DNA of 64,000 nucleotides from an uncultured Coriobacteriaceae bacterium. GTDB lineage: Bacteria > Actinomycetota > Coriobacteriia > Anaerosomatales > CAZWGV01. Positions 6,038-55,011 of this stretch are shown here, piece by piece (positions within the stretch are counted from its first letter, which is position 1; every line of letters starts with the position of its first letter). The notes under the pieces are model-generated. The model made no database searches. It was given only the letters and a program-made list of their open reading frames with translations, and was not told where the DNA came from. The stretch is from NCBI GenBank assembly GCA_964633595.1, contig CAZWGV010000001.1:33083-97082 (forward strand). The letters are read 5' to 3'. A program made the position numbers and the translations under genes.

Positions 6038-6278
6038 CCGCAGGTCGCTTCTCTGATGGCCGCTGGGCCGGAAGCGGCCAGCTCCCTCCATCACCCGATC
6101 GCGGCGAGCTAACCGCGGTGACCCTCGGGTGCGTCGTGAATCCCCAGGATGGGCATGATGCCTGATAGCGGGGGTGTGCGCACTATCGCTGCGTGGCACT
6201 CTCATTGCTCACTCGGTGCCGAGTCCATGCGCCAACAGCCTCAAACGTACGCCCAGGTTGCTCGGATGGGAGCTCTGT

Positions 6279-7037
6279 ATGACCGAGCCGCAGACGCCCG
6301 AAGAAGAGCGCGCCCCTGCCCGTGTGTGGGAATCGCTGCAAGACCCCCTCACTCGCAAGCTTGCCTACGCGAGCGCGGTGGTCCTCTTGTTGTGGTTGCT
6401 GAGCTTCGCTGCCGCGATGATCATTGGTGTGCTGCGGCCCGCAGTCCCCAGGACGTCCACAGAGCGTGCCTTGATGGTCTACGAGGGCCAGGTGAACTCG
6501 GGCGAGGCGGACCTCAGAGTATGGGCTGCGTACATCAGAGCGCTCATAGGCGCGAAGCAGTACTCGGATGCCGAATCGGCTATCGAGCGCGCTTTGGCGA
6601 GCGCTCCCGAGGAGAGATCGACCATCCTCGTCGAGCGTGCACGACTGAGCTTCTCGCGCGGCGACTACGCGCAGGCGGTCGAGGTATGCGACGAGACGCT
6701 AGCGGCTGTTGAGGCTGAGCTCAGGGAGAGGGAATCGGTCACTCCGGCGAGCCAGCTACCGACTGAGAGCGTATTGCCAGAAGCGTACGGGCCGGCCCTG
6801 CTGATCAAAGCCGACTCGCTGCGAGAGCTGGGGGACGCGCAGAGGGCGCTGGAGACGTACGACACATACCTCGAAAGGTGGCCGACCGCCGCTGACGTGC
6901 TCGTTCGCCGCGGCGACATCAAGGCGTTGATCGGCGACGAGTCCGGCGCCGAGGACGACTACCGCAAAGCGCTCTCCTTCGGCGACTATGAGCCGGCGAA
7001 GGAAGGGCTCGAGCGGATAGGAGCTGATCCGCGATGA
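6279..7037 (+). CDS. membrane-anchored TPR repeat protein
   Basis: ATG 6279 is preceded by GGGAG. One TM helix (AVVLLLWLLSFAAAMIIGVL) is followed by TPR-like helical repeats (AESAIERALASAP.., GDYAQAVEVCDETL.., GDAQRALETYDTYL.., AEDDYRKALSF). The stop overlaps the NHL gene start (ATGA). Confidence 0.7.
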   Translation: MTEPQTPEEERAPARVWESLQDPLTRKLAYASAVVLLLWLLSFAAAMIIGVLRPAVPRTSTERALMVYEGQVNSGEADLRVWAAYIRALIGAKQYSDAESAIERALASAPEERSTILVERARLSFSRGDYAQAVEVCDETLAAVEAELRERESVTPASQLPTESVLPEAYGPALLIKADSLRELGDAQRALETYDTYLERWPTAADVLVRRGDIKALIGDESGAEDDYRKALSFGDYEPAKEGLERIGADPR

Positions 7038-8359
7038 GCGCCCGGCAGCAGGACAGCAGGGCATCGCGCACCAGGCGCGGGCTCGCCGCGGTGCTCGCAC
7101 TCCTCCTCGTTCTCCTCGCCGCCACTTCCCTCTACCTGATAGGAGTTGTGCGTCCGCCAGGGTCGGAGGACATCGAGAGATCGGCGCGCGCCGGGAATCT
7201 CGAGTGGGTCCGCTCTATCTACGGATTCGGCTCCACTCAGGAGGAGCAGCTCAACGCCCCCAACGACGTCGCTGTCGGGCCCGAGGGCACGATCTGGGTT
7301 GCAGATCAGGCCAGGGCGCGGGTACTGGGGTTCGGGCCCGACGGATCCTACGAAACCGTGTTGCACAGAGGCCCCAGGGGCTCTTCAGAGGACGCACTGG
7401 CCTTCCCGGCCTCGCTCGCGGTGGATGAGGATGGGCTCATCTACATAGGAGACATGATGAAGGACAGGGTCGTCGTCATGTCTCGCGACAACGAGATCCT
7501 GCGGGAGTACTACGTTCCGGGTCCTCTCTCGGTGGACGTGCGAGGGGATCGCATCGTCGCCGGATCAGCGGCGGGCTTCGTCATCTTCGACAAGCAGGGA
7601 GAGGTCGTCCGGCTCGTCGGCACCAGGGGGCAGGGTGACGGGCAGTTCGACGGTGTGCGGGGTGTGGCTATCGCGCCCGACGGCGCCATCTTCGTAGTCG
7701 ATCAGTACAACAACCGCATCAGCGCGTACGACTCCGAGGGCGAGCGCCTTTGGATGAGGGAAACCGGTATCCCGGCGAACAGGTCGCGGATGGCCGAGGG
7801 TGAGACCTCCTTCGAGACTACCGCCGAGGCCGGACTGATCCTGCCCGCTCGGATCGAGGTGGACGGCTCGGGACGCCTCGTGATCGTGGACCCGTTCGAT
7901 TTCTCGATCGCCGTCCTTGATGCGGAGGATGGCAGCCTGATCGCCAAGCACGGTACCTATGGGGGCACCGACGGGCAGTTCCTGTATCCAACGGGCATCG
8001 CGTTCGACCCTGGACGCGACTGGTTCGTCGTTGCTGACACCGGGAACAGCAGGGTGCAGATAGTGCGTATCTCGGGATCGGGTGGTAGCGCGACTGCAGT
8101 GGTCAGCCGTACCCTCGCCGGGCCCTTGAGCGCGTGCGCCCTCCCTCTGTCTGGGCTGGTTCTGTTGGTGGCCTTGATCCTGCTGGTGCGAGCCATGCGA
8201 AGTCGAAGAGGCTCGCGAGGCGGTGAGGCCCCCGCTGATCGCGACTCTGCGGTCGTGGTCGGGGACTCGGGTGCGGTCACGGAACCCAGCGAGAAGGCCG
8301 ACGTAACGCAGGGTCAGGACTCCTCCGTCGACGTGTCGGCGGATGGCGGGGACGAGTAG
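7034..8359 (+). CDS. NHL-repeat six-bladed beta-propeller protein with N- and C-terminal TM helices
   Basis: Six NHL-like blades are visible (VAVGPEGTIWVADQARARVLGF, LAVDEDGLIYIGDMMKDRVVVM, GVAIAPDGAIFVVDQYNNRISAY, IEVDGSGRLVIVDPFDFSIAVL, GIAFDPGRDWFVVADTGNSRVQIV). N-terminal TM LAAVLALLLVLLAATSLYLIGVV, C-terminal TM LSGLVLLVALILLV, and an acidic tail. Confidence 0.85.
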   Translation: MSARQQDSRASRTRRGLAAVLALLLVLLAATSLYLIGVVRPPGSEDIERSARAGNLEWVRSIYGFGSTQEEQLNAPNDVAVGPEGTIWVADQARARVLGFGPDGSYETVLHRGPRGSSEDALAFPASLAVDEDGLIYIGDMMKDRVVVMSRDNEILREYYVPGPLSVDVRGDRIVAGSAAGFVIFDKQGEVVRLVGTRGQGDGQFDGVRGVAIAPDGAIFVVDQYNNRISAYDSEGERLWMRETGIPANRSRMAEGETSFETTAEAGLILPARIEVDGSGRLVIVDPFDFSIAVLDAEDGSLIAKHGTYGGTDGQFLYPTGIAFDPGRDWFVVADTGNSRVQIVRISGSGGSATAVVSRTLAGPLSACALPLSGLVLLVALILLVRAMRSRRGSRGGEAPADRDSAVVVGDSGAVTEPSEKADVTQGQDSSVDVSADGGDE

Positions 8360-8434: not shown

Positions 8435-8814
8435 CCTATGCCCGACTGAATAGGCGTCAGTGGGTAGAAACACAGCGGTACGAGTTCGGATCGTTGATAT
8501 GGAGGATGCAAGGCCGAGATCGGTGAGTCCGGCTGGGCCACGGAAAACCTCCAGCTAGAGAGCGCAATCTGTACTCCGCGGTCGCAGTACGACGGTACCC
8601 GTCGTCCCGGTGCGCGGACCTGGCTAGGCACCTCCCTGCATAGCGGTCCGCCTGCAACCAAACCAGAACGCATATGCATACCGGCGCTCTCACAAGAACG
8701 GAACGTTGCGACCGCAAGAATCGCCGGTGATGCGGATCTCAGGAAGGAGGGACGGCCGTGATCGGGAGAGCGCATCAGCAGGACCCAAGGAAGACCAGAA
8801 CTGAAGGAGGCAAG

Positions 8815-9924
8815 ATGAAGAAGACCTTGTTCGTAACCATCCTGGCCACAGTATTCGTGCTCGCCTTCGCATCGAGCGCGTTTGCCGGGAAGTCGTCCGT
8901 GATGGTTCGCTCGGGTGACACGACCGTGACCGCGCCGATCGCGACGTACAACGACTGGTCCGGTACGTCCACCACGACCGCATTCGCGAACTTCCCCGGC
9001 AACGCTGGATCGACCTCACCGCACGGCGGATACGCCACTGCGACGGTGAAGTGCGCCGTTTGTCACGCGGCTCACGTGGCGGCTCCCTCGGGTGACACCC
9101 TGCTGCGTATGAAGGCCTCGGACTCGTGCGTCTACTGCCATGTAGCTACTGGTTCGAGCGTCCCTGGTGCGGTGGTGTACGGCGGTGACGCTGCCATCGC
9201 AACGGCGTCCGGCGACGATCACCACACCATCGGTAGCAACTGCAGCATCTGCCATGCGTCGGTTCACGGATCGAATGCGATCAAGAACATCCCGTCGCTA
9301 ACGGGCGTCCTTCTGAAGTCGGATTCGAACAACACCGCCGTGGATCTGCCAGCTATGGCGAACTTGCTCGACACGAGCGGGGCGCTGGCCACACGTCTGA
9401 CGACCGTGAACGACACGGCCACCCGTCGGGCAGCCATCGGCATCTGGTGCGGTACGTGCCATAACAATGCGTACTTCGTAACGAAGGCCAGCCAGAACGC
9501 GGCCTTCCAGTGGTCCTCCGGCACTGGCTGGACGTTGCGTACCGGCAGTGCTGCCAGGACGGGTCACCGGGTTGAAGCGGTGGCCAATGACGACTGGAAC
9601 GTAGGCAACAGCGTCTCCTCCAGCACTAAGGTGACCGGTCGCGTGGCCTGGGCACCTGCGACCGATTGCTGGTCGTGTCACGATGCCAAGAACGGTCTCA
9701 CTGGCGCATCTGAGGCTCCGGGCTTCCCGCACTACTCCCCCGGCGCCGGAAGGTTCCTCACCGCGGCTGGTGACGTCACTGGGCCCAAGACCAACGTTGG
9801 CGCTGTGACGTACGCTGCTGGTGGCGGAGACGGTGGACACTTGCGCTACTACACGCTGAAGGATGGCGTGTGCCTGAAGTGCCACAAGGGTTCGGCAACG
9901 ACAGGTGTGGGCTACAACTACTAG
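8815..9924 (+). CDS. secreted hexahaem c-type cytochrome
   Basis: ATG 8815 is preceded by GGAGG. Sec signal MKKTLFVTILATVFVLAFASSAFA/GK. Six CxxCH sites: CAVCH, CVYCH, CSICH, CGTCH, CWSCH, CLKCH. Eight additional His are available as distal ligands. The sequence is Gly/Thr/Ser/Ala-rich. Confidence 0.9.
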   Translation: MKKTLFVTILATVFVLAFASSAFAGKSSVMVRSGDTTVTAPIATYNDWSGTSTTTAFANFPGNAGSTSPHGGYATATVKCAVCHAAHVAAPSGDTLLRMKASDSCVYCHVATGSSVPGAVVYGGDAAIATASGDDHHTIGSNCSICHASVHGSNAIKNIPSLTGVLLKSDSNNTAVDLPAMANLLDTSGALATRLTTVNDTATRRAAIGIWCGTCHNNAYFVTKASQNAAFQWSSGTGWTLRTGSAARTGHRVEAVANDDWNVGNSVSSSTKVTGRVAWAPATDCWSCHDAKNGLTGASEAPGFPHYSPGAGRFLTAAGDVTGPKTNVGAVTYAAGGGDGGHLRYYTLKDGVCLKCHKGSATTGVGYNY

Positions 9925-10144: not shown

Positions 10145-11113
10145 GTGCAGCGACACTTCTACATCGGGCTCACCCGGTTGCTCCCCGTGGGGCTTGCCGT
10201 GGCAGCACTCGTTGCGCTTTTCGCTGTGGGCGTGACGGCAGCTACGCTGCCCGCCTGCACCTCTTGCCACGGGTCCGACCCGCTTGCCGAAGAGACCGAG
10301 GCCAGCAGCCACTCCGAGATACGGTGTGTTCGATGCCATGTCGCACCGGGGGTGGCGTCTCGCCTGACCTTCGGCTCGAGGCAGCTGTTTGGAATGACGC
10401 TCAGATTCGTGCCAGTTGGGGGGAGGGCGATCGCGAGCGTTCCGGACGCGACTTGCCTCTCATGCCACGAGCAAGTGCTCGGTGAGGTCTCGAGCTCGAA
10501 GGGCCTCAGGATCGCGCACGTCACATGCGCTGTGGGGCGTACCTGCGGTGACTGCCACTCCGGCACTGCGCATGGGTCTGCTGTCGCCTGGCTCAGGATC
10601 GCCGAGATGGAGAAGTGCCTCGAGTGTCATGGGACGGGCGAAGTATCCGCTGACTGCGGCAAGTGCCACGACCCCAGGACGCAGCGAGAACGTCTCGGCG
10701 TAGGCGCGTGGCGCGTCACACACGGGGCCGAGTGGGAGACCACTCACGGCATGGGCAACTCGGACACGTGCGCAGCGTGCCATCCCAGTAACTACTGCGC
10801 TCGCTGCCACGGCATCGATCTCCCCCATGAAGCCGGTTTCCTCGAGAGCCACGGGCAGACCGCGAAGGAGTCGCCGAGTTCGTGCGGCACGTGTCATCGC
10901 CGGAACTTCTGCGACGATTGCCATGGTCTCGAGATGCCTCACCCGGCGGAGTTCACGCCTGCTCACTCTGCTATTGCCAGCGGGACTGCGGATGTCGTCT
11001 GCGCCACCTGTCACGTCGCCAGTGACTGCAGCGGCTGCCATGTGAAGCATGTCCACCCGGGCGGAGCTATCGGAGGCGCTCCCGCCGGGACTCTCCCCGG
11101 GGGCGGTCTGTGA
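10145..11113 (+). CDS. membrane-anchored dodecahaem c-type cytochrome (NapC/NirT/NrfH-like N-terminal module)
   Basis: GTG start. N-terminal TM LLPVGLAVAALVALFAVGV. Twelve CxxCH sites in 322 aa: CTSCH, CVRCH, CLSCH, CGDCH, CLECH, CGKCH, CAACH, CARCH, CGTCH, CDDCH, CATCH, CSGCH. Confidence 0.9.
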   Translation: MQRHFYIGLTRLLPVGLAVAALVALFAVGVTAATLPACTSCHGSDPLAEETEASSHSEIRCVRCHVAPGVASRLTFGSRQLFGMTLRFVPVGGRAIASVPDATCLSCHEQVLGEVSSSKGLRIAHVTCAVGRTCGDCHSGTAHGSAVAWLRIAEMEKCLECHGTGEVSADCGKCHDPRTQRERLGVGAWRVTHGAEWETTHGMGNSDTCAACHPSNYCARCHGIDLPHEAGFLESHGQTAKESPSSCGTCHRRNFCDDCHGLEMPHPAEFTPAHSAIASGTADVVCATCHVASDCSGCHVKHVHPGGAIGGAPAGTLPGGGL

Positions 11114-12324
11114 TGATCGCTGCCCAAGTTGCGGACATCTCGCAAGTACTCCAGTCGATCCCGGAGATCATTCGTGATCCCGGGGCCGACCCGCGAGCCA
11201 CGGCCGCCCTGCTGGTGGCTGCGGTACTAGTGGCACTCATCATCGCTGTGACCGTGGCTCTGCTCCTTGTTGGCCCATCCGACCAGGAGGAAGAGGGGGC
11301 TGAGGGGGGTGAGATAAGCGAGGAAGACGAAGTGGGCGGATCTCCCGCGCCAGGGGCCGAGGGGCGGCCACGAACTCCCGCCCGGACCAGAATCGTTGGC
11401 ATTGCCGTAGTGGTGACGCTGCTCGCGGTGGTGGCCTGGGCCGCAACCGGGATCGCAACAGGCACGCGGTCGGTGTGCTTGTCGTGCCACGAGAGCAATC
11501 CGCACGCGGGTTCCGCTGCCGTAGACCCCCACGCGGACGTGGCCTGCGTTCGGTGCCACGAAGTCGGGGACGCGGTGACCCTCGCCGTGTTCACGCTCCC
11601 CGATAGAGCCGCCCACTTCCTGGCTGGTGTGAGCGAGACGGGGGCGGCCGCTGGTTACGGGCACCCGATCTCATCACTGGCATGCGAGGCCTGCCACGAG
11701 GGTTCCTTGGACAGCCCGTCGACGAGCGAGCGCACAGGGGTGCGCATGTCGCACGCGGAGCCGCTGGACGCGGGGTCGGAGTGTATCGATTGCCATGCTC
11801 TAAGGTCGGGAGTCGTGTCGTTAGCGAATGTCGGCATGACACCGTGTCTACGCTGTCACGATGGAGTAGCTGCCTCGGCGGAGTGCGAGACGTGTCACAC
11901 CAGAGACCCGTCGCTGGCCATCGCTTCAACCGAGCCAACGGCGGGCACTCTCGCCAAGGTTCAAGTGCCCCTGCCGCAGTGCGATGGATGCCACGTTCAG
12001 GAAGAGGAGGGGTGCGACGACTGCCACGGGATTAGGCTGCCGCACACGCGCGAGTTCGTTCAGTACGCGCACGCGCGGCCAGCGGTCATCGATATCTGGG
12101 ACGGGGGAGGCATCGCATGCGTCAGGTGTCACTACCCAGGTCGTCGAGACTGCAGTGAGTGCCACGACCCCTTCCCCTCTCACGGGTACTCTTGGGAGAC
12201 CGAGCACGGCATCGGAGTACGTTTCACTGCCGAGTGCGGCTGTCATAAGTTCAAGGCATACGCCGCCGAGAGGCAGTTCTGCGAGATCTGTCACGACACC
12301 GAGCCTCCAGGCACGCTCCGCTAG
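11110..12324 (+). CDS. membrane-anchored undecahaem c-type cytochrome (paralogue of the preceding gene)
   Basis: The start (GTG 11110 or ATG 11113) overlaps the preceding stop. Two TM helices flank an acidic low-complexity loop. Eleven CxxCH sites: CLSCH, CVRCH, CEACH, CIDCH, CLRCH, CETCH, CDGCH, CDDCH, CVRCH, CSECH, CEICH. Confidence 0.9.
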   Translation: MMIAAQVADISQVLQSIPEIIRDPGADPRATAALLVAAVLVALIIAVTVALLLVGPSDQEEEGAEGGEISEEDEVGGSPAPGAEGRPRTPARTRIVGIAVVVTLLAVVAWAATGIATGTRSVCLSCHESNPHAGSAAVDPHADVACVRCHEVGDAVTLAVFTLPDRAAHFLAGVSETGAAAGYGHPISSLACEACHEGSLDSPSTSERTGVRMSHAEPLDAGSECIDCHALRSGVVSLANVGMTPCLRCHDGVAASAECETCHTRDPSLAIASTEPTAGTLAKVQVPLPQCDGCHVQEEEGCDDCHGIRLPHTREFVQYAHARPAVIDIWDGGGIACVRCHYPGRRDCSECHDPFPSHGYSWETEHGIGVRFTAECGCHKFKAYAAERQFCEICHDTEPPGTLR

Positions 12325-12472
12325 GGTGCGGGTGACGCTCGGCCAGGGCGTCCGGACCTGCATCCCAAACGGCACACCGTCGCCGCCTGGCGCCCGGTCG
12401 CGGTGGTAGTGCCTCGGGTTCGTCGGGAATGGATGCCTCGGCGAACGACACGGCCGAGGGAGGTTGGACCTG

Positions 12473-13231
12473 ATGGCGGAGGTTGAGGCAAGGTTTCGCA
12501 GACTTCGTCTCTACAACGTGGTGATGGGGTTGTTCCACGCGGCGCAAGGTGTCGCGATCCTCGCGCTCGCGACAGACTTCACGCTGCCGGTGACCGCGAG
12601 CTTCCTGGAGGGCCCGCCGGGTACACCCGCCGAAACTACCGTGCTCTTCGACCTGAGCATCGCCTGGGGCGTCGCGGCGTTCGTGTTCCTTTCGGCGATA
12701 GCGCACTTCCTAATCGCCTCCCCGGGTGTGTTCGGCTGGTACGTTGCCAACTTGCGGCGGAACCGCAACTACGCGCGCTGGATCGAGTACTCGCTGAGCT
12801 CGTCGGTCATGGTGGTGCTAATAGCGCTGCTGCCGGGCATTTCGGATGTCGCCGCCCTGGCTGCCATCTTCGGCGTCAACGCCTCCATGATCCTGTTCGG
12901 GCTGCTGCAGGAGCACTACGAGGATCCGGGCAGCGGTCACTGGCTGCCCTTCTTCTTCGGCTGTATTGCAGGGCTGGTGCCGTGGATAGGGGTCGGTATC
13001 TACATGTGGAGCCCGACGACCGATGCCACGCCGCCCGAGTTCGTGATCGCGATCTTCGTGAGCATCTTCCTGTTCTTCAACAGCTTCGCGCTCAACCAGT
13101 GGCTCCAGTACAAGCGCGTGGGACCGTGGCGCGACTATCTGTTCGGCGAGAGTACCTACATCCTGCTGAGCCTTGTAGCGAAGTCCGCTCTCGCGTGGCA
13201 GGTGTTTGGCGGAACGCTGACGCCCCAGTAG
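12473..13231 (+). CDS. heliorhodopsin (7-TM retinal protein)
   Basis: Long near-identical blocks to the prototype heliorhodopsin 48C12 as I recall it: FHAAQG.AILALA.DF, WIEYSLSSSVMVVLIA (counter-ion Glu), IFGVNASMILFG, FFGCIAGLVPWIG, LFFNSFAL, YILLSLVAKSALAWQ (Schiff-base Lys). ATG 12473 sits about 9 nt after GAGGGAGG; the ORF track opens at TTG 12464. Confidence 0.9.
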   Translation: MAEVEARFRRLRLYNVVMGLFHAAQGVAILALATDFTLPVTASFLEGPPGTPAETTVLFDLSIAWGVAAFVFLSAIAHFLIASPGVFGWYVANLRRNRNYARWIEYSLSSSVMVVLIALLPGISDVAALAAIFGVNASMILFGLLQEHYEDPGSGHWLPFFFGCIAGLVPWIGVGIYMWSPTTDATPPEFVIAIFVSIFLFFNSFALNQWLQYKRVGPWRDYLFGESTYILLSLVAKSALAWQVFGGTLTPQ

Positions 13232-13666: not shown

Positions 13667-14443
13667 CTACTCAGCGTAGATGGTTCCCTCGGGCGCACCA
13701 CCGCTGCACGCGATCGTGTACTGCCCCGGCTCGAGAGCCGGGAGCTTGACGGTGCCACCATTCGTGATGTCTTGGGTGATGCCGAGGTCGGGGAAGACCA
13801 CGCCAACACGGCACTCCGTGCCCGGGCCGAAGACGATCTCAACTGGCACGCCGCTCTTCACGCGTATGAGGTTGGGCCGAAAGCCCCCTTCGTCGACTAT
13901 CTCGATGCGCTGCACCTTGCCGTCCGCCGACAGCTTGGCGGCGGTGGCATCTTCGCGAGCAGGCGCAACGTAGCCCACCTCCACCAGCTTCTTCCTGATG
14001 GGCTCGGGATTGATGGACGCCGAGTCGTACGCGACGGTGAGCTCGAGCGTTGATGTATCGAGGGAGGCCTTCCCGATTCCCACGAGCTGCGTGAGCGCCT
14101 CGAACATGTGAGTCGCCTCATGGGCGGCGTCGCCGTTCTCTATGAGTCGCGTCTGGAATGTCGTCTCCGAATCGGTCGAGACGACCGCGATGGTCTGCGT
14201 GATCACGTTGTCGGCAGTTGTCCGCTCGCCAGGCTGCGACGAGAGCAGCTGGGGGACGGTGAAGGCGGCCACAAGCAGCGCGATGGCGCCGAAGATGACG
14301 TGCTTCGGCTTGATGCGCGGAGCGGGGGGTGGCTCCTCGACGCCCGTCGGCTCCTCAGCGGCCTGCTCCTCGGTGACCTGCTCCTCGACGCCCGTCGGCT
14401 TCTCAGCGGCCTGCTCCTCGGTGATCTCGTTCTCGTCGACCAT
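13667..14443 (-). CDS. membrane-anchored protein with HMA-like (no CxxC) and C-terminal cupredoxin-like domains
   Basis: ATG 14443 with AGGAG RBS; the longer 367-aa ORF would overlap azlC. Acidic 16-aa tandem repeat, TM helix HVIFGAIALLVAAFTV, then a beta-rich C-terminus (RIEIVDEGGFRPNLIRVKSGVPVEIVF...GQYTIACSGGAPEGTIYAE) typical of cupredoxin_1-type domains. Confidence 0.6.
   Translation of the reverse strand: MVDENEITEEQAAEKPTGVEEQVTEEQAAEEPTGVEEPPPAPRIKPKHVIFGAIALLVAAFTVPQLLSSQPGERTTADNVITQTIAVVSTDSETTFQTRLIENGDAAHEATHMFEALTQLVGIGKASLDTSTLELTVAYDSASINPEPIRKKLVEVGYVAPAREDATAAKLSADGKVQRIEIVDEGGFRPNLIRVKSGVPVEIVFGPGTECRVGVVFPDLGITQDITNGGTVKLPALEPGQYTIACSGGAPEGTIYAE
14333..14428. repeat. 48-bp in-frame tandem duplication (2 copies, about 3 mismatches)
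   Basis: ctcctcgacgcccgtcggct[c/t]ctcagcggcctgctcctcggtga[c/t]ct.. occurs at 14333-14380 and 14381-14428. It encodes EEQAAE(K/E)PTGVEE.. in the cupredoxin-domain gene. Confidence 0.85.
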
Positions 14444-14657
14444 GCTCACTCCTGATCGCCTGCTATGCGTTGGGCTATCTCGACGTGCCCTCTTGGGGCA
14501 GTTGAGCATGGAGTATGGCATATCCCCGCCCGGTTGCGGGGGAAGTGCCTGTGTCACCGGACCGCTCGCACATGTGCGACCATGACCGATACCCGCCGTA
14601 TCCGGCAGACTTGGCTTGGTGGAGCGCCTCACTTGTGGAGGACCTGGGAGAGCCGTG

Positions 14658-15347
14658 ATGGGTCGAAAGCGTGCCAGCTTCCTCGCAGGGATGCGGGACA
14701 TCGCCCCGCTCGTGCCGGCTGGCATCGCCGTGGGGCTGGTTGTGGGAGCCGCAGTTGCCGAGGTAGGCATGGGCCTGCCCGAGTCGGTGGGGATGTCGGT
14801 ATTCGTTTACGGGGCGTCCGCCCAGCTCGCGGCGACCCTCCTGTGGGGCCAAGGCGCTCCGCTCCTGGTCACGGTCGGCACGGCCCTAGTGATCAACGCT
14901 CGGTTCTTCATCTACAGCGCGTCGCTTGCGCCGCTGCTCGATCCGCCGACGACACGTTCGGCTGTCGCGCAGGGCTACTTGATCCGTGATGCGGCATACG
15001 CGGCCACAGTCTCGCGTGCCCTGCGCGATCCGGAGATGGACAAGACTGCCTACTACACTGGGGCGTCACTGCTCGACTGGCTGGTCTGGCTCGTGGGAAC
15101 CTCGGCGGGCGCGCTTGGCGCCTCTTTGCTGCCGGCGTCGTGGTCGCTCGACTTCATGGTGCCCCTGGTTTTCGTTGGTCTGCTCGTGGGCGCGGTTCAC
15201 GGTCGCGCTTCTGCCGAGGCGGCGGTTGTGGCCGCTGTCGGCTCCACGATCCTGGTTCCACTCCTGCCGATGAGAGCGGGTCTTCTCGCGGCGATCGCAC
15301 TAGGCATGGTCTGGGGCTTCGTAAGGCAGGAGGAGGTCGGACGTTGA
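14658..15347 (+). CDS. azlC: AzlC family branched-chain amino acid transport protein
   Basis: Polytopic membrane ORF with the N-terminal FLAGMRDIAPLVPAGIAVGLVVG pattern typical of AzlC, followed by a coupled azlD. The start is uncertain (14616 or 14658). Confidence 0.7.
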   Translation: MGRKRASFLAGMRDIAPLVPAGIAVGLVVGAAVAEVGMGLPESVGMSVFVYGASAQLAATLLWGQGAPLLVTVGTALVINARFFIYSASLAPLLDPPTTRSAVAQGYLIRDAAYAATVSRALRDPEMDKTAYYTGASLLDWLVWLVGTSAGALGASLLPASWSLDFMVPLVFVGLLVGAVHGRASAEAAVVAAVGSTILVPLLPMRAGLLAAIALGMVWGFVRQEEVGR

Positions 15348-24884: not shown

Positions 24885-25991
24885 CTACTCGATCGGCTGG
24901 AACCGGTCGCGCAGCCTTTCCTCCACCATCGGCATCGTCGTGTACTCCATCTCATCGAGCGAGAGCCGATGCGGCTCGAACGGTCCGTGACGGCGCATGT
25001 AGTCGGCGACGTCGAGCGCCAAGGCGCGCGAGTTGTCGAAGCTGATGTCACCCAGCATGTCGTGTGGACGCCCCAGCCTGCCGTCTTCCAGCAGCTGAAG
25101 TCCGTAGGCGACAACGCGAGGCGGACCGTCGAACCGGCTCGGCGTGTCATCGTCCCACGAGACCGGCATCAGGGGACCGTGGTGACTCCCGCGCATCCAG
25201 CCGGCAACGGTGTGCGGGAAGGCGAATGGCTCGAGCGCTTCGCCCACCGCCGGCAGACCGCTCTGGCAGCGGACTATCATCACAGGGTCGTCCTTCCCAA
25301 CATAGCGTCCCGCTATCAGTGAGAGCCTCTGGGTCGACGTCGCTGCCGCGATCTCCCCGTCGCTCTTGCGAAAGACGTGCTTGATCACATAGCGCGCCGG
25401 TGCGCCTACGTAGACGAGCAGGTCGTATATCTCGTCTGGGGCGTCGAAGGAGACCTTCTTCTCCTCGAAGAGATCGTGAACCTCGAAGACGAAGCCGCCG
25501 TGCATGTTGGGATCTATGACCAGCCCGGCGGTGTTGAACGGATCGGCGAACATCTTGTACAGAGGCAGATTCCAGGCTCCTGGCTCGGTCTTGTCGGCGA
25601 GGAACACGATGATGGGTTCGCTCGGCCGGACCTCGATCTCCATCTCTGCGCAGCCCGGTCCCATTCCCCGTACATTGCCCGAGAAAGAATCGGCCAGCAG
25701 ATCCTGCCCCGCACCGTACTGACCGAGCTCTCTGGCCTTCTCGGTCATCGCTACGAACGTGTCCCAGGCGAACTCGTGGATGTCGGAGGCGTCGATCCCC
25801 CTGCGGTGCGTCATGATGAGCGCTGTGTCATCGCCGACGCGGCCGCGCAGTCCATCCAGGATCACTCCCGCGCCCTTAGCCTCCTCCAGTCGCTCCTCGG
25901 CCAGTTCACAGATCTCCGGGTGGACGCTGCAGTGGCCCACCCATCCGCCGATGTCGGCCTTGATCACGCTGAGTGTCAGCTTCTGTGGCAT
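24885..25991 (-). CDS. fbp: bifunctional fructose-1,6-bisphosphate aldolase/phosphatase (class V FBPase, archaeal type)
   Basis: MPQKLTLSVIKADIGGWVGHCSVHPE... is the hallmark N-terminus, and the 368-aa length is typical. Confidence 0.88.
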   Translation of the reverse strand: MPQKLTLSVIKADIGGWVGHCSVHPEICELAEERLEEAKGAGVILDGLRGRVGDDTALIMTHRRGIDASDIHEFAWDTFVAMTEKARELGQYGAGQDLLADSFSGNVRGMGPGCAEMEIEVRPSEPIIVFLADKTEPGAWNLPLYKMFADPFNTAGLVIDPNMHGGFVFEVHDLFEEKKVSFDAPDEIYDLLVYVGAPARYVIKHVFRKSDGEIAAATSTQRLSLIAGRYVGKDDPVMIVRCQSGLPAVGEALEPFAFPHTVAGWMRGSHHGPLMPVSWDDDTPSRFDGPPRVVAYGLQLLEDGRLGRPHDMLGDISFDNSRALALDVADYMRRHGPFEPHRLSLDEMEYTTMPMVEERLRDRFQPIE

Positions 25992-40453: not shown

Positions 40454-43400
40454 CTACTTGTGCGGCACCACGATGTTGCCGCCCCGGATACTGACGGCAT
40501 TGGCGCTCACGCTGGGAGAGCGGCCGAGCGACAGGTCGCCGATGACCGCGCTCTCCTTGTCGCGTGTCTCGATCCAGAATCTGTCTACACCGGTGCCGGG
40601 CTCATTGCGATCCTCGACGTACGCGGTGAAGCTGTGGTTGCCCTCGGGCAGCGCCATCGTCGGGGACTGGTATGTCGCCCGGCCGGTGAACGACGCCCAG
40701 CCGAAGCCGCTGTTGGTCGGTGAACTGAGCGCTAGCCCGCCCAGAGCGTTGCTCTTCACGCGGTAGATGGTGCCGTCGGGCATGTGCCGGATGAGCAGCA
40801 GGCTGCCCTGAACGTTCGTGCCGTTCTTGTTGTACTTCATCGTATAGCCGAAGTTCGTCTTGTCGCCCTTGTTCGTGCCGTTCTCGGAGTCTGGCCAGTA
40901 GAACCAGCCGCCGCCGGTAGTGAACCCGAGGCTCGGGTCGTAGACGGTGACGGCGCCCTCGGTGTAGCCGGTGTAGTATCGGCCGTTCACCGTCACCTCG
41001 ACAACGTAGGTGTTCACAGCCAGGTTCGCTGGCACTGCGATCGTGAACTTGCCTTCGGCGTCAGGGCCGGTCACCACTCCCGCGCATCCGGAACCAGGAC
41101 CGATGGGGACGAGTCTCGCGGTCACGACGGCTCGCCTGCGGTCGCCGATCTCGGCCGTGTCATCCTCGTGCAGCCACGCGATGAGCGTGAAGGCCGGGGC
41201 AGAGCCACCAGGCTTGGTCACCTGGACCGCCGCCGGGCTGTTGTCGTCGAACACGACCTTGGCCCTCTCGCACGATACGACGAGCTGGACCGCTGCGTTC
41301 ACTGATGTGGCACCGTCGCTCACGGCGCAGTTCATGTTGTAGGTACCCTCGGGCTCCATGGCGCGGCCCGCGATGCGGAAGGTCTTGCGCACACCATCAC
41401 CGGTCGTCGGGTCGCTCATCGGCGTCGATGAGGGCGAGCCATAGGCGAGGTCCGCACACAGACTGCCGGATATCGTGAGGTCGGGCGAGTCGATGTCCTC
41501 GGCAACGATGACGATCGGAGTGACCGAGTCGCTGTACTGCTTGGTCTGAGTTGACGGAGTGACCGAGACGACCACCGGCGCGTCGTTCACAGGCGTGACG
41601 TTGATGGTGAGGGTGTTGGGCGTCGGGTCGAGGTCGACACCGCCGCGCTCAGTGCCGCCGTTGTCCTGCACCTGGAAGGTGAAGGATGTGTACTGCGAGC
41701 CGTTCTCATCGGCGACGGGGCTGAAGCGGAGCTTGCCGTCCGCGATGTCGGCTGCGGAGATGAAGTCGCCTTCCGCGACCGCCGCCCCATTGCTGCGAAG
41801 TACGCCCTTGGCCGGCAGGGTCGCGATCTTGACTGCTGCTAGCACGTTGTGCGCGATGGAGTCGTTGGGGTCGGTGAAGCCGAAGTTGGCCGCTGCGAAG
41901 GTGTATGTGGTGTCCTCGAGCGTAGTGACGGTCTTGTCGGTGCCGGCCGGGGCGTCGTTGACGGAACGCACGGTGATGGTGACTGTGGCGATCGTCGAAG
42001 TGTCGTCGTCGAGAGCTTCGTACTTGAAGCTGTCGGTCCCGTGGAAGTTCGGGCTGGGCGTGTAGGTAAAGGAGCCGTCTGCGCCGACCGTGACAGTACC
42101 GTGCACAGGATTCGAGACCTTCGCCGCACTGAGCGGGAGGTCGGCGGGCACGTCGCTGTCGTTGGCTAGTACGCCTGGGGCGTCGACGCTCAGGATGCCG
42201 TCTTCGTTGACCGAGTAGCTGTCGTCGGTAGCGTCTGGAGCCACGTTGGCGACCGTGACAGCGAGCGTGTCGCGGCTCGTCTCATCGTCGTCCGTGACGG
42301 TCACGGTCACCACATAGCTGCCGTCCTGCTCGTATACGTTGGACAAGGAGAACGTCTTGCCGGTGAGCGTGAGCGGGACCTCTCCCGCGCCCTCGCCGTA
42401 GTCCACGGTGGCCGTCCAGCTGTCGTCGCCGGGATCGGTGAAGCTGCCGGACTGGGAGAACGTGTCGCCCTCGTCTATGGCGGCGTCGGCTCCGGCGTCT
42501 ACCGAAGGAGCCACGTTGGCGACCGTGACAGCGAACGCAGCGCTCCCGGAGCGACCTGTTGAATCCTCAACTGTAACGCTGACCGGCCGAACCGCGGGCC
42601 CGTCAGCGTAGGTATGTACGCGAGTTCCAAGCGAACCAGCCGAACCTGTTGTGAAGACATCATTCGGCGTCCCGTCGCCCCAGGCTACCGTCACGGTCCA
42701 CGGACCCCCGTCCGGATCGCTGAACGAACCCAGCGAGAAGGACTTGGCGACGCCCTCTGTCGCGATCTGCGAGGCGGGTGCAGTGACCTTTGGTGTCGTG
42801 GGTGCCGCGACGGCCACCGTCACGGTGGCTGCCTTGCTCGGCTTGTAGTACGCATTGCCGACGAACCTCGTCACCAGCTTGTAGGTACCGCCGTCCGAGG
42901 GGAGTGTCATCGCGGGCGAGCCCGTTGTCTTGCCGGTTGCGTCGACGTTCGCCAACACGGGGCCGGCTTCGCGAACCGTCTCAGCCGAGTTGAACAGCTC
43001 GAACGTCGCCAGGTTCGCACCGGCGAGGTTCGGATCGGGGGAGATGGTGCCATTCAAACCACCCGGCGGCGCCGGACTCCCACCGTCAAGATCCGCCACA
43101 GTAGCGGCGAGAGCCAGTGGTGTTCCCGCGATACCGGACGTCGCGCCACCGTAGGTGACACGAGTATCTTCCTTGTCGACGTGCGAGAAGGCTGTCTGTG
43201 GTGTGTTCCGAGCTCCGACATGCGACACAACGAAGGTGTATCTCGTCGCGTCGCTCGTCGGATCCGAGGGCAGGCAGCGCAAGGGAACGTCGACCGTGAA
43301 CGTTGCGGCCTTGTTTTGCCCGCCGGTGGACCACGACGGCCCCGTGAGGGTGGTGACCACCGAGTCCTCGTAGTCGAGGTAGTCGCCATCGCGATTCCCG

Positions 43401-43939
43401 TCAAGGCTAACCGTGACTGGCTTGCTACCCGGTTCGTCATCCTTGGTGGTGCTCTCAAGCTTTCCTGTCACCCTCGCGAAGTCCGAGTAGTCCGGTCCGG
43501 GAGAGGGCGGGGATACGGCGGTGGGACCGATCTCAATGAAGTACGGATCGAACTCGGTCACGAACACCGCGCCCGAGGCCTGTCCGGTGGCGATCACGAG
43601 GTAGATGCCGGCGGGCGCAGTGTCATACATGAAGAATGTGTCGAGGAACTCCCCGGCTTCGTTCGCGAAGACGGTGTTGTACTGCTCTAGGCTGCCCTCG
43701 GGCGCGTAGACCTCCACGACTACGGGCTCGCTCGGCCACATCTCGTCGCCGAAGATGTGCACCGTATCACCCCAGTCATAGAAGAAGCGCGGGAACTCCT
43801 TGTAGTACTCCCGCGTGTTCTGGTCGTCTCCGGTCCATACGGCGGCGTGCGCCGCCAGGACGCCAAACGAGAGCACGATCGCCAGCGTGACGACTGCGAG
43901 AGCCGCTAGACGACCAAAGTGCCGTCTCCGCATGCGCAT
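40454..43939 (-). CDS. large secreted multi-domain surface protein (Ig/PKD/cadherin-like repeats)
   Basis: 1161-aa ORF with signal MRMRRRHFGRLAALAVVTLAIVLSFGVLAAHA/AV. Repeated VANVAP / VNDAP linker motifs, a PKD-like WGDGT segment, and a C-terminal GGGWF...NFGYTMKY...DRNEPGTGVDRFWI module. No LPXTG. Confidence 0.8.
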   Translation of the reverse strand: MRMRRRHFGRLAALAVVTLAIVLSFGVLAAHAAVWTGDDQNTREYYKEFPRFFYDWGDTVHIFGDEMWPSEPVVVEVYAPEGSLEQYNTVFANEAGEFLDTFFMYDTAPAGIYLVIATGQASGAVFVTEFDPYFIEIGPTAVSPPSPGPDYSDFARVTGKLESTTKDDEPGSKPVTVSLDGNRDGDYLDYEDSVVTTLTGPSWSTGGQNKAATFTVDVPLRCLPSDPTSDATRYTFVVSHVGARNTPQTAFSHVDKEDTRVTYGGATSGIAGTPLALAATVADLDGGSPAPPGGLNGTISPDPNLAGANLATFELFNSAETVREAGPVLANVDATGKTTGSPAMTLPSDGGTYKLVTRFVGNAYYKPSKAATVTVAVAAPTTPKVTAPASQIATEGVAKSFSLGSFSDPDGGPWTVTVAWGDGTPNDVFTTGSAGSLGTRVHTYADGPAVRPVSVTVEDSTGRSGSAAFAVTVANVAPSVDAGADAAIDEGDTFSQSGSFTDPGDDSWTATVDYGEGAGEVPLTLTGKTFSLSNVYEQDGSYVVTVTVTDDDETSRDTLAVTVANVAPDATDDSYSVNEDGILSVDAPGVLANDSDVPADLPLSAAKVSNPVHGTVTVGADGSFTYTPSPNFHGTDSFKYEALDDDTSTIATVTITVRSVNDAPAGTDKTVTTLEDTTYTFAAANFGFTDPNDSIAHNVLAAVKIATLPAKGVLRSNGAAVAEGDFISAADIADGKLRFSPVADENGSQYTSFTFQVQDNGGTERGGVDLDPTPNTLTINVTPVNDAPVVVSVTPSTQTKQYSDSVTPIVIVAEDIDSPDLTISGSLCADLAYGSPSSTPMSDPTTGDGVRKTFRIAGRAMEPEGTYNMNCAVSDGATSVNAAVQLVVSCERAKVVFDDNSPAAVQVTKPGGSAPAFTLIAWLHEDDTAEIGDRRRAVVTARLVPIGPGSGCAGVVTGPDAEGKFTIAVPANLAVNTYVVEVTVNGRYYTGYTEGAVTVYDPSLGFTTGGGWFYWPDSENGTNKGDKTNFGYTMKYNKNGTNVQGSLLLIRHMPDGTIYRVKSNALGGLALSSPTNSGFGWASFTGRATYQSPTMALPEGNHSFTAYVEDRNEPGTGVDRFWIETRDKESAVIGDLSLGRSPSVSANAVSIRGGNIVVPHK

Positions 43940-44302: not shown

Positions 44303-46408
44303 CTACTCGTAGACGACAGGACACGGCTCTGGACATACTGTACGGACGCCGTCGTTGTTGTTGAACCAGTCGAGCATCGCCGCCATGTCACCCTGCTGTG
44401 CGGCGCTCCCGCTCTCCCAGCAGGCGACCGCCATCGAGATTACCGCTGACGCGGCGATGCGCCTGCCATCGGGCATTTGAACGGATACGTCACAACTGCC
44501 CAACCGATGCCGGACGTTGAACACGAAGGCGAGCAACTGCTGAGCGAGTTGCTCTCTCGGGTCACCGCCGGCGTTCCTGTCGACCAGGAAGTGCGACACC
44601 TCGGCCTTCCACGATCCGGCGGGTGCGATCCCTTCGGCCCAGGCACCGTTCGCTGCCGCCACTGGCGTGCCGTCGGCGAACAAGCCGTCGAATGGCTCGT
44701 CTCCCGAATCGCAGTAACTCGACGCCGATGAGTACGGCGACAGCGAGTTCGCAAAGTCGCGATCAGCCTGGGTCAGCTCGGAGAGCCCGTTCTTGTTGTG
44801 CCAGTAGCCCTTGGTGTCGAAGTCGCAAGTGCTCTCGCAGGCGTTGCCGAAGATGCGAGTCTCGCAGCCTCCCTCGGGCAGCTTGATCACAGCCGACATA
44901 GCGGTGGTGGCGAACCATCCGCCTGAGGTGGGGAGCACCTCTCTGAGTTCGTAGTCGCCAGGCAGCAGGCCCTGGAACTTCACCCAGCCGGACGAGTCGG
45001 TGTGACCCGTGATGGGCCCAACCGAATCGCCCCTGTACGTCGTCCCGATGAGGATGAAGCGAAAGCCCTCTATCGGCTGCTCGCCGTCGTCCCACTCGCG
45101 GTTCGTGTTGCGGTCGTAGAACTTGCGACCCTTGATGCACGCGTACCGCGCGTTCCCGAACGACCTTCTGGGTGATCCGCCCTCGGCAAGGCTGACCGCC
45201 CACTCAGTATCGGTCGTCGGGAACCACCCGTCCGGGACTGTCTCGGTGACCTTGTAGTCCCCAGGCAGCAGATTGCAGAAGCGCGCCCAGCCGTTGGTGT
45301 CGGACTCCTTGGACTCGTTGACGGTCTCGCCCCGGATGTTGACACCCGTCAGCGTGAACGTGACGCCGGACTTCGGCACCTCGCCGTCGTCCCACTCACC
45401 GTTCACGTTGGCGTCGTGGAACTTGCGGGCACTGACGCAGCCTAGTTCGATGTTGCCGAACCACACCTCGTGCGTCTCGCCTGAGGTTCCCGCCACCGCC
45501 ACGATCGCGCACTGGGAGACGGCTTGCGGGACCCCATCGATGATCAGTGCGGTCTGCCGCCAGCCATCCTTCAGCTCCTCGCAGATCTTCCAGTCGCCGG
45601 TGGGAAGTGCGTTGTCCACGGTGAAAGGCATGGTCTGGGGCCCGCCGCGCCACTCGGCACCGAGCGGGTCTTCCACGCTGGCCGTCCAATCGAAGAGCTC
45701 GGGCTCACCGTCGTCGCGCACGCCGTTGGCGTTGGTGTCGCGGAACTTCCTCACCGTGATCTTCGGCGGGATCGTCCTGCCACGGACCTTGAAGTTGTCA
45801 GTCTTGCTCCACCGCGGCACGAAGCCGTGGAAATGGTCTGGGTTGTCCATGAGCGACGGGTCACCGACGAACTTGTCCACCGGCGTTGCCCACACCTTGT
45901 AGACGCCGCCGCGGTTGGGTGTGTCGTCGTAGGGCATGAGCTGGACCGTGATCGCTCCGAGCCCCGAGTGGTCGCGGTCGATGCCTGTCAGGTGCGTGTG
46001 ACTAGCCACCCGCGTGCTAGGCGCAGCCCTGCCCTTGCCTTTCCCGGCGGGGCTCACGTCGCCCGGTCCCGTGCAGTCACAGATCCAGACCCGTTCGATG
46101 ACCCCATGCCGGTTGACGTAGAAGCGGCGGCACTTCACTGGGTCCGTCGAGAGCAGCACTTTGCCCGACGGGTCAGTGACTTGGAAGTAGTACCAGCCTT
46201 CCGGCAGGCCCGCGGCCTTCGATGGAGCGTTGGGCCCCGGTCCGCCATCAAGATATACGTCCTCCTTCGCCTGGTAGATGTTCGCGTTGACACGGCTGCC
46301 ATCTGCGGTCGTGGTGAAGATGGCTCCCGAGACCGCGGCGTATGCCGGTTGCGCGGCGAACAGCAGGATCAGGACGGTTAGGAGGGCGAAGAGAACACCT
46401 TTCTTCAT
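44303..46408 (-). CDS. secreted protein with SdrD-B/Cna-B-like repeats
   Basis: Signal MKKGVLFALLTVLILLFAAQPAYA/AV. Three or more repeats of RKF(R/H/Y)D.N.N(G/R)..DDGE...G, which are Ca-binding SdrD B-like repeats. The C-terminal module is shared with the gene at 35701. Confidence 0.8.
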   Translation of the reverse strand: MKKGVLFALLTVLILLFAAQPAYAAVSGAIFTTTADGSRVNANIYQAKEDVYLDGGPGPNAPSKAAGLPEGWYYFQVTDPSGKVLLSTDPVKCRRFYVNRHGVIERVWICDCTGPGDVSPAGKGKGRAAPSTRVASHTHLTGIDRDHSGLGAITVQLMPYDDTPNRGGVYKVWATPVDKFVGDPSLMDNPDHFHGFVPRWSKTDNFKVRGRTIPPKITVRKFRDTNANGVRDDGEPELFDWTASVEDPLGAEWRGGPQTMPFTVDNALPTGDWKICEELKDGWRQTALIIDGVPQAVSQCAIVAVAGTSGETHEVWFGNIELGCVSARKFHDANVNGEWDDGEVPKSGVTFTLTGVNIRGETVNESKESDTNGWARFCNLLPGDYKVTETVPDGWFPTTDTEWAVSLAEGGSPRRSFGNARYACIKGRKFYDRNTNREWDDGEQPIEGFRFILIGTTYRGDSVGPITGHTDSSGWVKFQGLLPGDYELREVLPTSGGWFATTAMSAVIKLPEGGCETRIFGNACESTCDFDTKGYWHNKNGLSELTQADRDFANSLSPYSSASSYCDSGDEPFDGLFADGTPVAAANGAWAEGIAPAGSWKAEVSHFLVDRNAGGDPREQLAQQLLAFVFNVRHRLGSCDVSVQMPDGRRIAASAVISMAVACWESGSAAQQGDMAAMLDWFNNNDGVRTVCPEPCPVVYE

Positions 46409-54009: not shown

Positions 54010-55011
54010 GTGCTGACGCACTACTCGGCGGTAGACGCGGGGCAGGAACCACCAGCGTACGTTAGGACGAGGTCGCTGCCGACGTGCGTTGAGGACGTCG
54101 GCGCTTTGTCCGCAGAGCGGCTTTGGGAGGCCCACGACTCCGCCCTTCGCGGGGAGCGTGGAGACGACAGCGTGATCGCCGGTGCGGGGGCGAGCCTGCT
54201 CGCGCTCAAAGCCGAACTCGCGAGGCGGGCGCTGTCCTGTTGCCGGCTGTGCGGACACAGGTGCGGTGCCGATCGCGCTTCCGGGGTCCGCGGATCGTGT
54301 GGTGTGGGTGTCACCCCGCGCGTGGCGTCGGCCTTTCTGCACGGTGGAGAGGAGCCGGAGCTGGTGCCCTCGCACACCGTGTTCTTCGCCGGCTGCACCA
54401 TGGGCTGCGACTACTGTCAGAACTGGGATATCGCCTTTCGACCTGAGGCAGGGAGCCCCACCGATGCCCCCGCGCTCGCTCGGCTCTTCGAGGCCGGCCA
54501 GGCGAGCGGGGGCCGCAACCTCAACCTGGTCGGAGGCGACCCGACACCCAACCTACACACCATCCTCGAAGCGCTCGCTCTCACCGCCGCAGCCACCCCC
54601 GTTGTCTGGAACAGCAACATGTACATGGAAGAGGAGGCGGCCCGCCTCCTAGACGGGGTGGTCGATGTGTACCTGGCGGATCTCCGTTATGGCAACGACG
54701 AGTGCGCCAGGCGCCTGTCGGGAGTGGGGCGGTACTCAGAAGTCGTCCGACGAGCGGTGGGTGAGGCGCATCGCCAGACCGACGTGATGCTCCGCCACCT
54801 CGTCCTCCCCGGCCATGTCGAATGCTGTACGCGGCCGGTCATCGAGTGGGTCGGGGCGAACATCCCGGGTGTCTACTTCAACCTGATGTTCCAGTACAGA
54901 CCGTGCCACTTCGCCGCACGCCATCCAGAACTCGGGCGAGGCCTCACGTCAGGGGAGCGTGAGCTTGCCCTGAAGCTGGCGCAAGCTGGGGGGCTTGCAC
55001 TGGCGGGCTAG
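54010..55011 (+). CDS. radical SAM protein, PflX-like (putative glycyl-radical-enzyme-activase family)
   Basis: CTMGCDYCQNW is the CxxxCxxC motif. The upstream CRLCGHRCGADRASGVRGSCG motif is typical of COG1313-type proteins. Confidence 0.75.
   Translation: MLTHYSAVDAGQEPPAYVRTRSLPTCVEDVGALSAERLWEAHDSALRGERGDDSVIAGAGASLLALKAELARRALSCCRLCGHRCGADRASGVRGSCGVGVTPRVASAFLHGGEEPELVPSHTVFFAGCTMGCDYCQNWDIAFRPEAGSPTDAPALARLFEAGQASGGRNLNLVGGDPTPNLHTILEALALTAAATPVVWNSNMYMEEEAARLLDGVVDVYLADLRYGNDECARRLSGVGRYSEVVRRAVGEAHRQTDVMLRHLVLPGHVECCTRPVIEWVGANIPGVYFNLMFQYRPCHFAARHPELGRGLTSGERELALKLAQAGGLALAG

Follow-up and report, generated by a model that had tools for sequence, protein, structure and literature searches.

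Adjacent paralogous multihaem cytochromes with NrfH-like heads: a candidate menaquinol-linked electron outlet in Coriobacteriia

The way in which Gram-positive Actinomycetota carry menaquinol electrons across their thick wall is barely understood, and the only partly characterised route of this kind is, to our knowledge, that of Thermincola, a Firmicute. Its cytochrome ImdcA (Tfer_0070 / TherJR_1117) was purified from membranes with an uncleaved N-terminus, shows low-spin haems together with a tentatively assigned high-spin signal, and has been proposed to oxidise the menaquinone pool (PMC7911101; PMC7096707). Among Actinomycetota, "two putative quinol oxidizing multihemes" clustered with an MtrA homolog have been mentioned in Anaerosoma and Parvivirga (Khomyakova 2022, PMC9686372). 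Here we describe two adjacent genes, encoding the paralogous cytochromes A and B, in a stretch of 64,000 nucleotides (the window) from an uncultured Coriobacteriaceae bacterium (contig CAZWGV010000001.1). We consider it moderately likely that A and B work together as a possibly reversible menaquinol dehydrogenase, anchored in the membrane and facing outward, with a haem wire, for which a hexahaem cytochrome encoded nearby would be the acceptor and NHL and TPR proteins the scaffolds; what we infer is the use of quinol, the heteromeric state, the partner proteins, and where and in which direction the electrons go.

A and B are the sole long, codon-biased open reading frames (ORFs) of their interval (10145-12324, + strand). 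A sequence-only reading of this DNA had described both ORFs, with 12 CxxCH motifs in A and 11 in B; the coordinates are confirmed and all motif strings quoted there are found, but the figure of 11 haems for B is amended to 12 sites, since a contracted motif of the form CxCH (C376-G-C378-H379) had been overlooked, and the pair is better described as having 12+12 putative haem sites rather than 12+11. That A and B are duplicates of one design, as the same reading held, is borne out both by pairwise BLASTP (E=1e-18, 30% identity across 252 aa) and by hhalign comparison of the A-family (55 sequences) and B-family (47 sequences) alignments (probability 100, E=1.8e-44), in which the two families are colinear from the membrane helix through the last haem, over all 12 sites. 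Exactly 12 CxxCH are present in 113 of 120 A homologues and CxCH in none of the A family, and the nearest relatives are 47-61% identical. Both proteins start with their membrane anchor, continue with a four-haem head like that of NrfH and end in a haem pair followed by three tight di-haem modules. In AlphaFold2 (AF2) models, with a mean predicted local distance difference test (pLDDT) score of 76 for A and 74 for B, the anchors and heads are of high confidence and the C-terminal modules of lower confidence.

The two genes are tightly joined. The 4-nt overlap noted earlier stands if B begins at GTG 11110 and shrinks to 1 nt if it begins at ATG 11113, the start with which the database copy of B (P0121, 403 aa) agrees. 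Related loci were found in species-representative genomes by a degenerate DNA pattern for the A motif HG-x2-W-x3-HGMG-x4-CxxCH; there are at least 119 of them, nearly all labelled as Coriobacteriia or Actinomycetota metagenome-assembled genomes (MAGs), with a few apparently mislabelled; Anaerosomatales, Candidatus Aquicultor and the biocathode organism EMTCatB1 are among them. The paralogue stands directly after A on the same strand in 99/99 loci with at least 1 kb downstream, 50 of about 103 pairs have an in-frame start of B at -4 and 17 have one at -1 (67 together), and several genomes hold 2-3 copies of the pair. The adjacency of A and B and their start/stop overlap would fit a 1:1 complex. 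A scan for promoters and terminators gave nothing usable.

The NapC/NirT/NrfH-like character of the heads, already proposed from the letters of the DNA, is supported by PF03264, if by a narrow margin (24.8 bits for A and 25.1 bits for B, barely above the cut-off of 24.1). NrfH (2j7a_C) is the best PDB profile match of both proteins, across all four haems (A, 7e-12, aa 16-149; B, 1.4e-12, aa 92-239), Foldseek finds NrfH only (probability 1.0 for A and 0.97-0.98 for B), and the four CxxCH in the compact head of A and of B can be aligned with the PF03264 family. As had been described, hydrophobic helices come first: one in A (aa 12-30), ahead of CTSCH...CVRCH, and two in B (aa 36-54 and 95-113), which flank a 40-aa loop (11 D/E, 4 K/R) and precede CLSCH...CVRCH; the helix nearest the head stands right ahead of haem 1 in each case (Cys38 in A; Cys123 in B, after the second transmembrane (TM) helix, TM2). 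NrfH of Desulfovibrio vulgaris (PDB 2J7A/2VR0) likewise has an N-terminal membrane helix and then four CxxCH in about 110-130 aa, but it has 4 haems in about 160 aa, against the 12 sites of A and of B, and B further adds an N-tail and an extra TM helix. An NrfA partner was not found here: the sole further multihaem ORF in the 64-kb window is the hexahaem cytochrome, and there is no NrfA-like Pfam match among the neighbours.

Among characterised proteins, ImdcA of Thermincola ferriacetica comes closest; its sequence was taken from the supplement of PMC7911101, and it is matched by BLASTP at 1e-15 (24% identity, aa 13-290) and by hhalign over the full length (probability 99.3, E=3e-20). Against the profiles of A and B, ImdcA and its paralogue PdcA score much alike (1e-22 to 1e-25, with 1e-24 to 1e-25 for ImdcA), and the duplication that gave rise to A and B therefore appears independent of that of ImdcA and PdcA. 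For TorC, ImcH and CbcL there is no significant match (TorC E=0.078; no ImcH or CbcL model was returned from Pfam and NCBIfam), and A does not reach the MtrA/DmsE decahaem model TIGR03508 (15.4 bits against a cut-off of 192.2).

The orientation of both proteins can be predicted from their helices and charges. In A, the N-terminus before the helix is short and basic (R3 and R11), the stretch after the helix is acidic, and AF2 gives a helix at aa 3-34 with pLDDT above 90. In B, two TM helices lie ahead of haem 1 in 46 of 47 relatives; the loop between them ranges from 27 to 84 aa across the family, has more K/R than D/E in its last 15 residues in most members, and is disordered in the AF2 model (pLDDT about 51-66), in which the N-terminus forms helices at aa 2-22 and 28-53. 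The K/R of B are gathered at the TM2-side end of the loop, and the N-tail is poor in them. Haems of the c type are attached on the outer face of the membrane. The haem domains of A and B are predicted to lie outside the cell, in agreement with the topology expected of them earlier, with TM helices that keep K/R on the inner side; the acidic loop of B is most likely cytoplasmic, because of the positive-inside rule and the attachment of haem outside, with the N-tail and the haem domain external. The same two arguments speak against a place of this loop at the membrane-wall interface. A wall-facing acidic loop of B was rejected on the positive-inside rule and the geometry of the two TM helices.

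C-terminal to the head, the repeated paired-haem units that the sequence-only reading had pointed out are recovered by profile: a hidden Markov model (HMM) of module 1 of A finds module 2 at 1e-12 (35 bits) and the first module of B at 4e-10, module 3 more weakly at 1e-5 to 1e-7, and isolated CxxCH sites at just 1-8 bits. Since the module scores far exceed those of lone CxxCH sites, the modules are regarded as true internal repeats. Neither Pfam nor NCBIfam has a dedicated model for this di-haem module. When a profile of the three di-haem modules of A was searched against 1.84 billion representative proteins, 2182 proteins were matched at E<=1e-3 and 764 at E<=1e-10; the top matches, unannotated proteins (P0222-P0367), range in length from 400 to 975 aa and contain 13-32 CxxCH, with the module, about 38-40 aa long, repeated in tandem 5-12 times. 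Many of them open with a TM helix and an NrfH-type CxxCHxM, a motif kept by the distant relatives with 26-32 haems. The pattern of a head followed by many modules is also fitted by the 20-haem "putative Q-oxidase" of Carboxydothermus ferrireducens (Ga0395992_02_135863_137242; Gavrilov 2021) and by P0119, a distant match of A with 493 aa and 20 CxxCH.

The contracted motif of B, site 11, pairs with the 11th motif of A, C286ATCH, in the hhalign alignment. No member of the B family departs from C376, C378 or H379, and of 47 relatives 20 have CxCH in this column and 27 have CxxCH. This conservation and the interchange with CxxCH support a function of the putative CxCH site. A contracted CKCH motif has been described in a tetrahaem cytochrome of Kuenenia stuttgartiensis (Ferousi et al. 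2019, as summarised in PMC7096707); as described there, it likewise has one residue between the two Cys of a haem motif within a multihaem protein, but it belongs to an unrelated family and organism, whereas the site in B alternates between CxCH and CxxCH among orthologues.

As for the axial ligands, the A family has 11 conserved free His, Cys128 and four Met (Met84/155/203/264) for 12 haems, which would be expected if one haem, for example that of the quinol site, were not bis-His. The B family, by contrast, has 12 sites but 7 free His conserved at 80% or more, to which His132 and Met213, at about 72% each, and Met243 can be added; either some haems of B would be left without a sixth protein ligand, or ligands would be contributed by another subunit, and the latter, a speculation, would favour a heteromer. 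Cys128 of A (window 10526-10528, in H125-x-x-C128-A) is a 25th cysteine, outside any CxxCH, kept in 49/55 A-family sequences and missing in B and in the deepest-branching relatives of A; it could be a ligand in a His/Cys haem or a redox-active thiol. A catalytic reductase role for A was rejected, as the 11 conserved free His, the Cys and the Met can serve all 12 haems.

The differences between the paralogues allow another explanation, namely that A and B make no complex and are independent anchored cytochromes, tuned to different potentials or partners and co-transcribed merely for co-regulation. They differ in their anchors (one TM helix against two), in their ligands (11 His, Cys128 and 4 Met in A, 7-8 His and 1-2 Met in B) and in the spacing of the last module, all of which points to sub-functionalisation. 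The adjacency in the same order at every one of the 99 loci, the duplication of the pair as a unit and the start/stop overlap, which implies coupled translation, stand against independence and make it very unlikely. NrfH itself is reported to dimerise in the NrfHA crystal, which also speaks for a complex.

The pair does not stand alone (Table 1). The hexahaem gene has a mechanical ORF that begins at 8758 (8758-9924), with ATG 8815 as the likely start; its product has a Paired_CXXCH_1 domain and weak matches to the MtrA C-terminus (6r2q_A, 8e-6) and to OcwA (6i5b, 3e-3). In the window, a gene for a MarR-type regulator lies just upstream. The usual setting of the pair is a cassette of five genes, TPR-NHL-hexahaem-A-B. 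In the eight-kb blocks around the related loci, a TPR-like ORF is found near the pair in 88/119 and an NHL ORF in 72/119, both lower bounds, and a homologue of the hexahaem gene adjoins the pair in many loci. Two loci (L122 and L123) have the co-oriented TPR-NHL-hexahaem-A-B cassette amid unrelated flanking genes, the locus of Coriobacteriaceae sp. EMTCatB1 (L019, BDLO01000001.1 144001-152000) has the full cassette in the same order, and two Anaerosomatales MAGs (L022 and L044) carry hexahaem-A-B. At 20 divergent loci (e.g. L005 3198-4364, - strand) a conserved ORF of ~250 aa with no Pfam match lies between A and the upstream multihaem gene; the window has no counterpart of it.

Table 1. Coordinates, in the window, of cytochromes A and B, their parts and the other genes of the cassette
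Feature	Position	Strand	Description
TPR-repeat protein, first cassette gene	6174..7037	+	Pfam TPR_16 9e-13; one TM helix, aa 69-87
NHL beta-propeller protein	7034..8359	+	Pfam NHL 1.8e-20; TM helices aa 20-38 and 367-385; 4-nt overlap with TPR gene
Secreted hexahaem cytochrome	8815..9924	+	6 CxxCH; signal-peptide-like N-terminus MKKTLFVTILATVFVLAFASSAFA; GGAGG 7 nt before ATG
Cytochrome A	10145..11113	+	322 aa, 12 CxxCH
A, predicted single membrane anchor, N-in/C-out	10178..10234	+	aa 12-30, hydropathy 2.6
A, NrfH-like tetrahaem head	10256..10573	+	haems 1-4: C38, C61, C104, C134, with H143
A, haem pair 5/6	10616..10669	+	CLECH-x8-CGKCH; both motifs invariant across A family
A, three tight di-haem modules	10733..11056	+	haems 7-12; CxxCH-x4-CxxCH-G-x2-[LM]PH-x3-F-x3-H
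A/B start/stop overlap	11110..11113	+	GTGA; alternative ATG 11113 gives 1-nt overlap
Cytochrome B	11110..12324	+	404 aa, 11 CxxCH plus 1 CxCH
B, conserved acidic N-tail and TM1	11110..11271	+	TM1 aa 36-54; amphipathic helix, [DN]P-x-[SA]-N cap, invariant Pro24
B, variable acidic loop	11272..11391	+	aa 55-94; 11 D/E, 4 Arg clustered right before TM2
B, predicted TM2, N-in/C-out	11392..11448	+	aa 95-113; 9 residues ahead of haem 1
B, NrfH-like tetrahaem head	11476..11796	+	C123, C146, C192, C225
B, haem pair 5/6	11845..11898	+	CLRCH-x8-CETCH
B, two di-haem modules	11980..12207	+	CDGCH-x6-CDDCHGIRLPH...H321; CVRCH-x6-CSECH-x5-H358...H366
B, contracted candidate haem motif, site 11	12235..12246	+	C-G-C-H, aa 376-379
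B, last haem motif, site 12	12280..12294	+	CEICH

Taken as a mechanism, A and B would be paralogous subunits of the NrfH/NapC/ImdcA lineage in the cytoplasmic membrane, facing outward, with each four-haem head on the outer face of that membrane, the presumed place of menaquinol oxidation (or menaquinone reduction), and with the eight further haem sites of each chain forming a short wire that projects into the wall zone. Translational coupling of the genes would lead to 1:1 production, and A and B would most likely act as a heteromer. The electrons would next go to the secreted hexahaem cytochrome encoded alongside, the NHL and TPR proteins, anchored in the membrane, would act as scaffolds, and the whole cassette would supply the inner section of a chain for extracellular electron transfer in monoderm Coriobacteriia. 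The earlier suggestion that the pair itself bridges the membrane-wall interface is not upheld, twelve haems being too few for a Gram-positive wall; the conserved neighbours, that is the secreted hexahaem cytochrome and the membrane-anchored NHL and TPR proteins, are probably needed to span it.

Clusters of this type appear to have been noted in passing in the literature for Anaerosomatales. The cluster of Khomyakova (MCK8115470-72 / MCL4078710-12) is probably the same cassette as hexahaem-A-B, because the two Anaerosomatales MAGs mentioned above carry the latter. Of the two isolates, Parvivirga hydrogeniphila is an obligate Fe(III) reducer while Anaerosoma tenue reduces no Fe(III), and this is the only multihaem cluster that they share (PMC9686372). 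The retention of a cluster of such description in the non-reducing A. tenue would suit a different role for the pair, as a CymA-like general quinol-dehydrogenase hub that serves soluble reductases of the wall zone (for nitrite, sulfur compounds or organics) and not one dedicated extracellular conduit; the homology of the head to NrfH/NapC speaks for such a hub as well, and the 2-3 copies of the pair in a genome would suit different acceptors. A hub of this kind is nevertheless distinctly unlikely, given that no reductase gene (NrfA, molybdopterin enzyme, etc.) is found in the cassette of the window or in L122 and L123, and that the constant neighbours are the secreted hexahaem and the NHL and TPR genes, not reductase genes.

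Several points weigh against an outward-facing menaquinol dehydrogenase. At the level of the family, the NrfH equivalog model TIGR03153 is not reached (31.6 bits for A and 28.4 bits for B against a cut-off of 134.2). At the level of the quinol site, the residues of NrfH (Met49/CxxCHxM, Lys82 and Asp89), whose Lys/Asp pattern the sequence-only reading had named as a check, are not conserved: CxxCHxM, which holds the Met ligand of haem 1, is lacking in both proteins (CTSCHGS in A, CLSCHES in B); an equivalent of Lys82 is absent, its place in A being a gap or a non-conserved column; the position of Asp89 is taken in A by Gln80 (phmmer) or Gly83 (profile) and in B by His169, conserved in 39/47. 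A few deep-branching members of the A family (P0085, P0096, P0114) keep CHxM, and as conserved alternatives A has Arg73 and Met84, whilst B has Arg166 and Glu151. As for the wire, AF2 confidence is 55-82 over the C-terminal modules, for which Foldseek finds no structural neighbour. The oxidation of quinol by ImdcA is itself only proposed, the presence of the cluster does not predict iron reduction, as A. tenue illustrates, and the expression of the genes in EMTCatB1 suggests an inward rather than an outward flow.

The expression values given for EMTCatB1 (PMC7943316) concern three consecutive multihaem genes, 1d0125-0127, which we infer from gene order to be hexahaem-A-B of its cassette. In transcripts per million (circuit closed/with BrES/circuit open) they are 10917/3942/4287, 270/94/67 and 152/43/52, respectively, a transcription about 2.5-4 times higher under current-consuming conditions. 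The organism dominates an electron-consuming biocathode, and direct electron uptake through multihaem cytochromes was inferred by the authors (PMC7943316). It may thus be asked whether the same proteins work inward, from a cathode, Fe(II), a mineral or a partner cell to menaquinone, or are freely reversible. This we regard as doubtful: the mapping of 1d0125-0127 draws on gene order only and the replicates of those data differ about two-fold, and a cluster of such description is reported in Parvivirga, an obligate Fe(III) reducer (PMC9686372). Haem wires are, moreover, intrinsically bidirectional, so that the choice of direction is a question of physiology and not of a different mechanism.

A more ambitious joint proposal, which we hold to be unlikely as a whole, states that the pair is an obligate 24-haem heterodimer in which the ligand-rich A gives axial ligands in trans to the ligand-poor B, much as NrfA gives a ligand to haem 4 of NrfH, that the CxCH of B is functional and makes this the first large family with such a motif outside anammox bacteria, and that the pair is a short, duplicated form of a large superfamily built from an NrfH head and 3-14 tandem di-haem modules, with up to 32 haems. 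If this were true, the superfamily would be a general "anchored wire" that moves quinol electrons across the periplasm or the cell wall.

In the window, a heliorhodopsin gene (12464-13231, + strand; PF18761 1.5e-102; NCBIfam HeR 3e-101) lies 140 bp downstream of B; it was considered as a part of the system and rejected, being adjacent to the pair in 0/119 related loci. A gene at 13667-14770 (- strand) encodes a membrane protein that ends in a cupredoxin-like domain (PF13473, 4e-8) and has a weak HMA-like match; in this gene a 48-bp tandem repeat (14332-14424; 1.9 copies, 97% match) encodes an acidic EEQAAE.PTGVEE repeat. Two putative surface proteins are encoded on the - strand, one of 1161 aa with PKD, cadherin-like and Big_9 domains (40454-43939) and one of 701 aa with SdrD-B and SpaA-like domains (44303-46408), and a gene for a baeRF (bacterial archaeo-eukaryotic release-factor-like) protein stands beside that of a radical SAM enzyme (55008-56186, - strand, and 54010-55011, + strand). 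The host genome looks like that of an anaerobic member of the Coriobacteriia; the fructose-1,6-bisphosphatase gene (24885-25991, - strand; PF01950, FBPase_3, 3.8e-172), whose family is the archaeal-type fructose-1,6-bisphosphate (FBP) aldolase/phosphatase typical of thermophilic autotrophs, and a four-subunit 2-oxoacid:ferredoxin oxidoreductase (60059-63171, + strand) agree with an anaerobic lifestyle.

The cassette is widespread: it occurs in subsurface Coriobacteriia such as OPB41/Anaerosomatales, in MAGs from groundwater and sediment and in an organism of a biocathode. A and B offer a compact, testable candidate for the membrane step, as two translationally coupled cytochromes of 12 sites each. 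The natural CxCH/CxxCH series at one site of B should be useful for exploring the limits of cytochrome c maturation, and the unnamed di-haem repeat, present in about 2000 representative proteins, merits a family definition and a structure.

Among the known systems, ImdcA is alike in its full-length homology, in the shared motifs of the head (C..CH..., SSHS.IRCV.CH) and in its anchoring, since its uncleaved N-terminal helix holds it in the membrane and A and B are predicted to be anchored too. The Gram-positive electron-transfer chain of ImdcA includes a hexahaem wall cytochrome, CwcA; the secreted hexahaem cytochrome encoded next to A and B would be a candidate counterpart, with PDB matches to MtrA and OcwA only. 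ImdcA differs in having 10 CxxCH instead of 12 sites and single haems where A has tight CxxCH-x4-CxxCH pairs, and the pathway published for Thermincola pairs it with PdcA, a soluble paralogue, not with a second anchored subunit. CymA, NapC and TorC, as well as ImcH and CbcL (Shewanella, Geobacter), are functional analogues, being anchored multihaem cytochromes through which the quinone pool is connected to chains in the periplasm or outside the cell, and in TorC a NapC head already carries an added haem domain. The descriptions given by Gavrilov and by Khomyakova are annotations at the level of BLAST, which do not include the strict pairing of A and B, the contracted motif, the hairpin of B or the module repeat. 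A and B are thus an elaborated version of the known NrfH/ImdcA type of anchored multihaem design rather than a new kind of system, and their distinguishing marks are the obligate pairing of paralogues, the tight di-haem modules, the subunit with a TM hairpin and the contracted haem motif.

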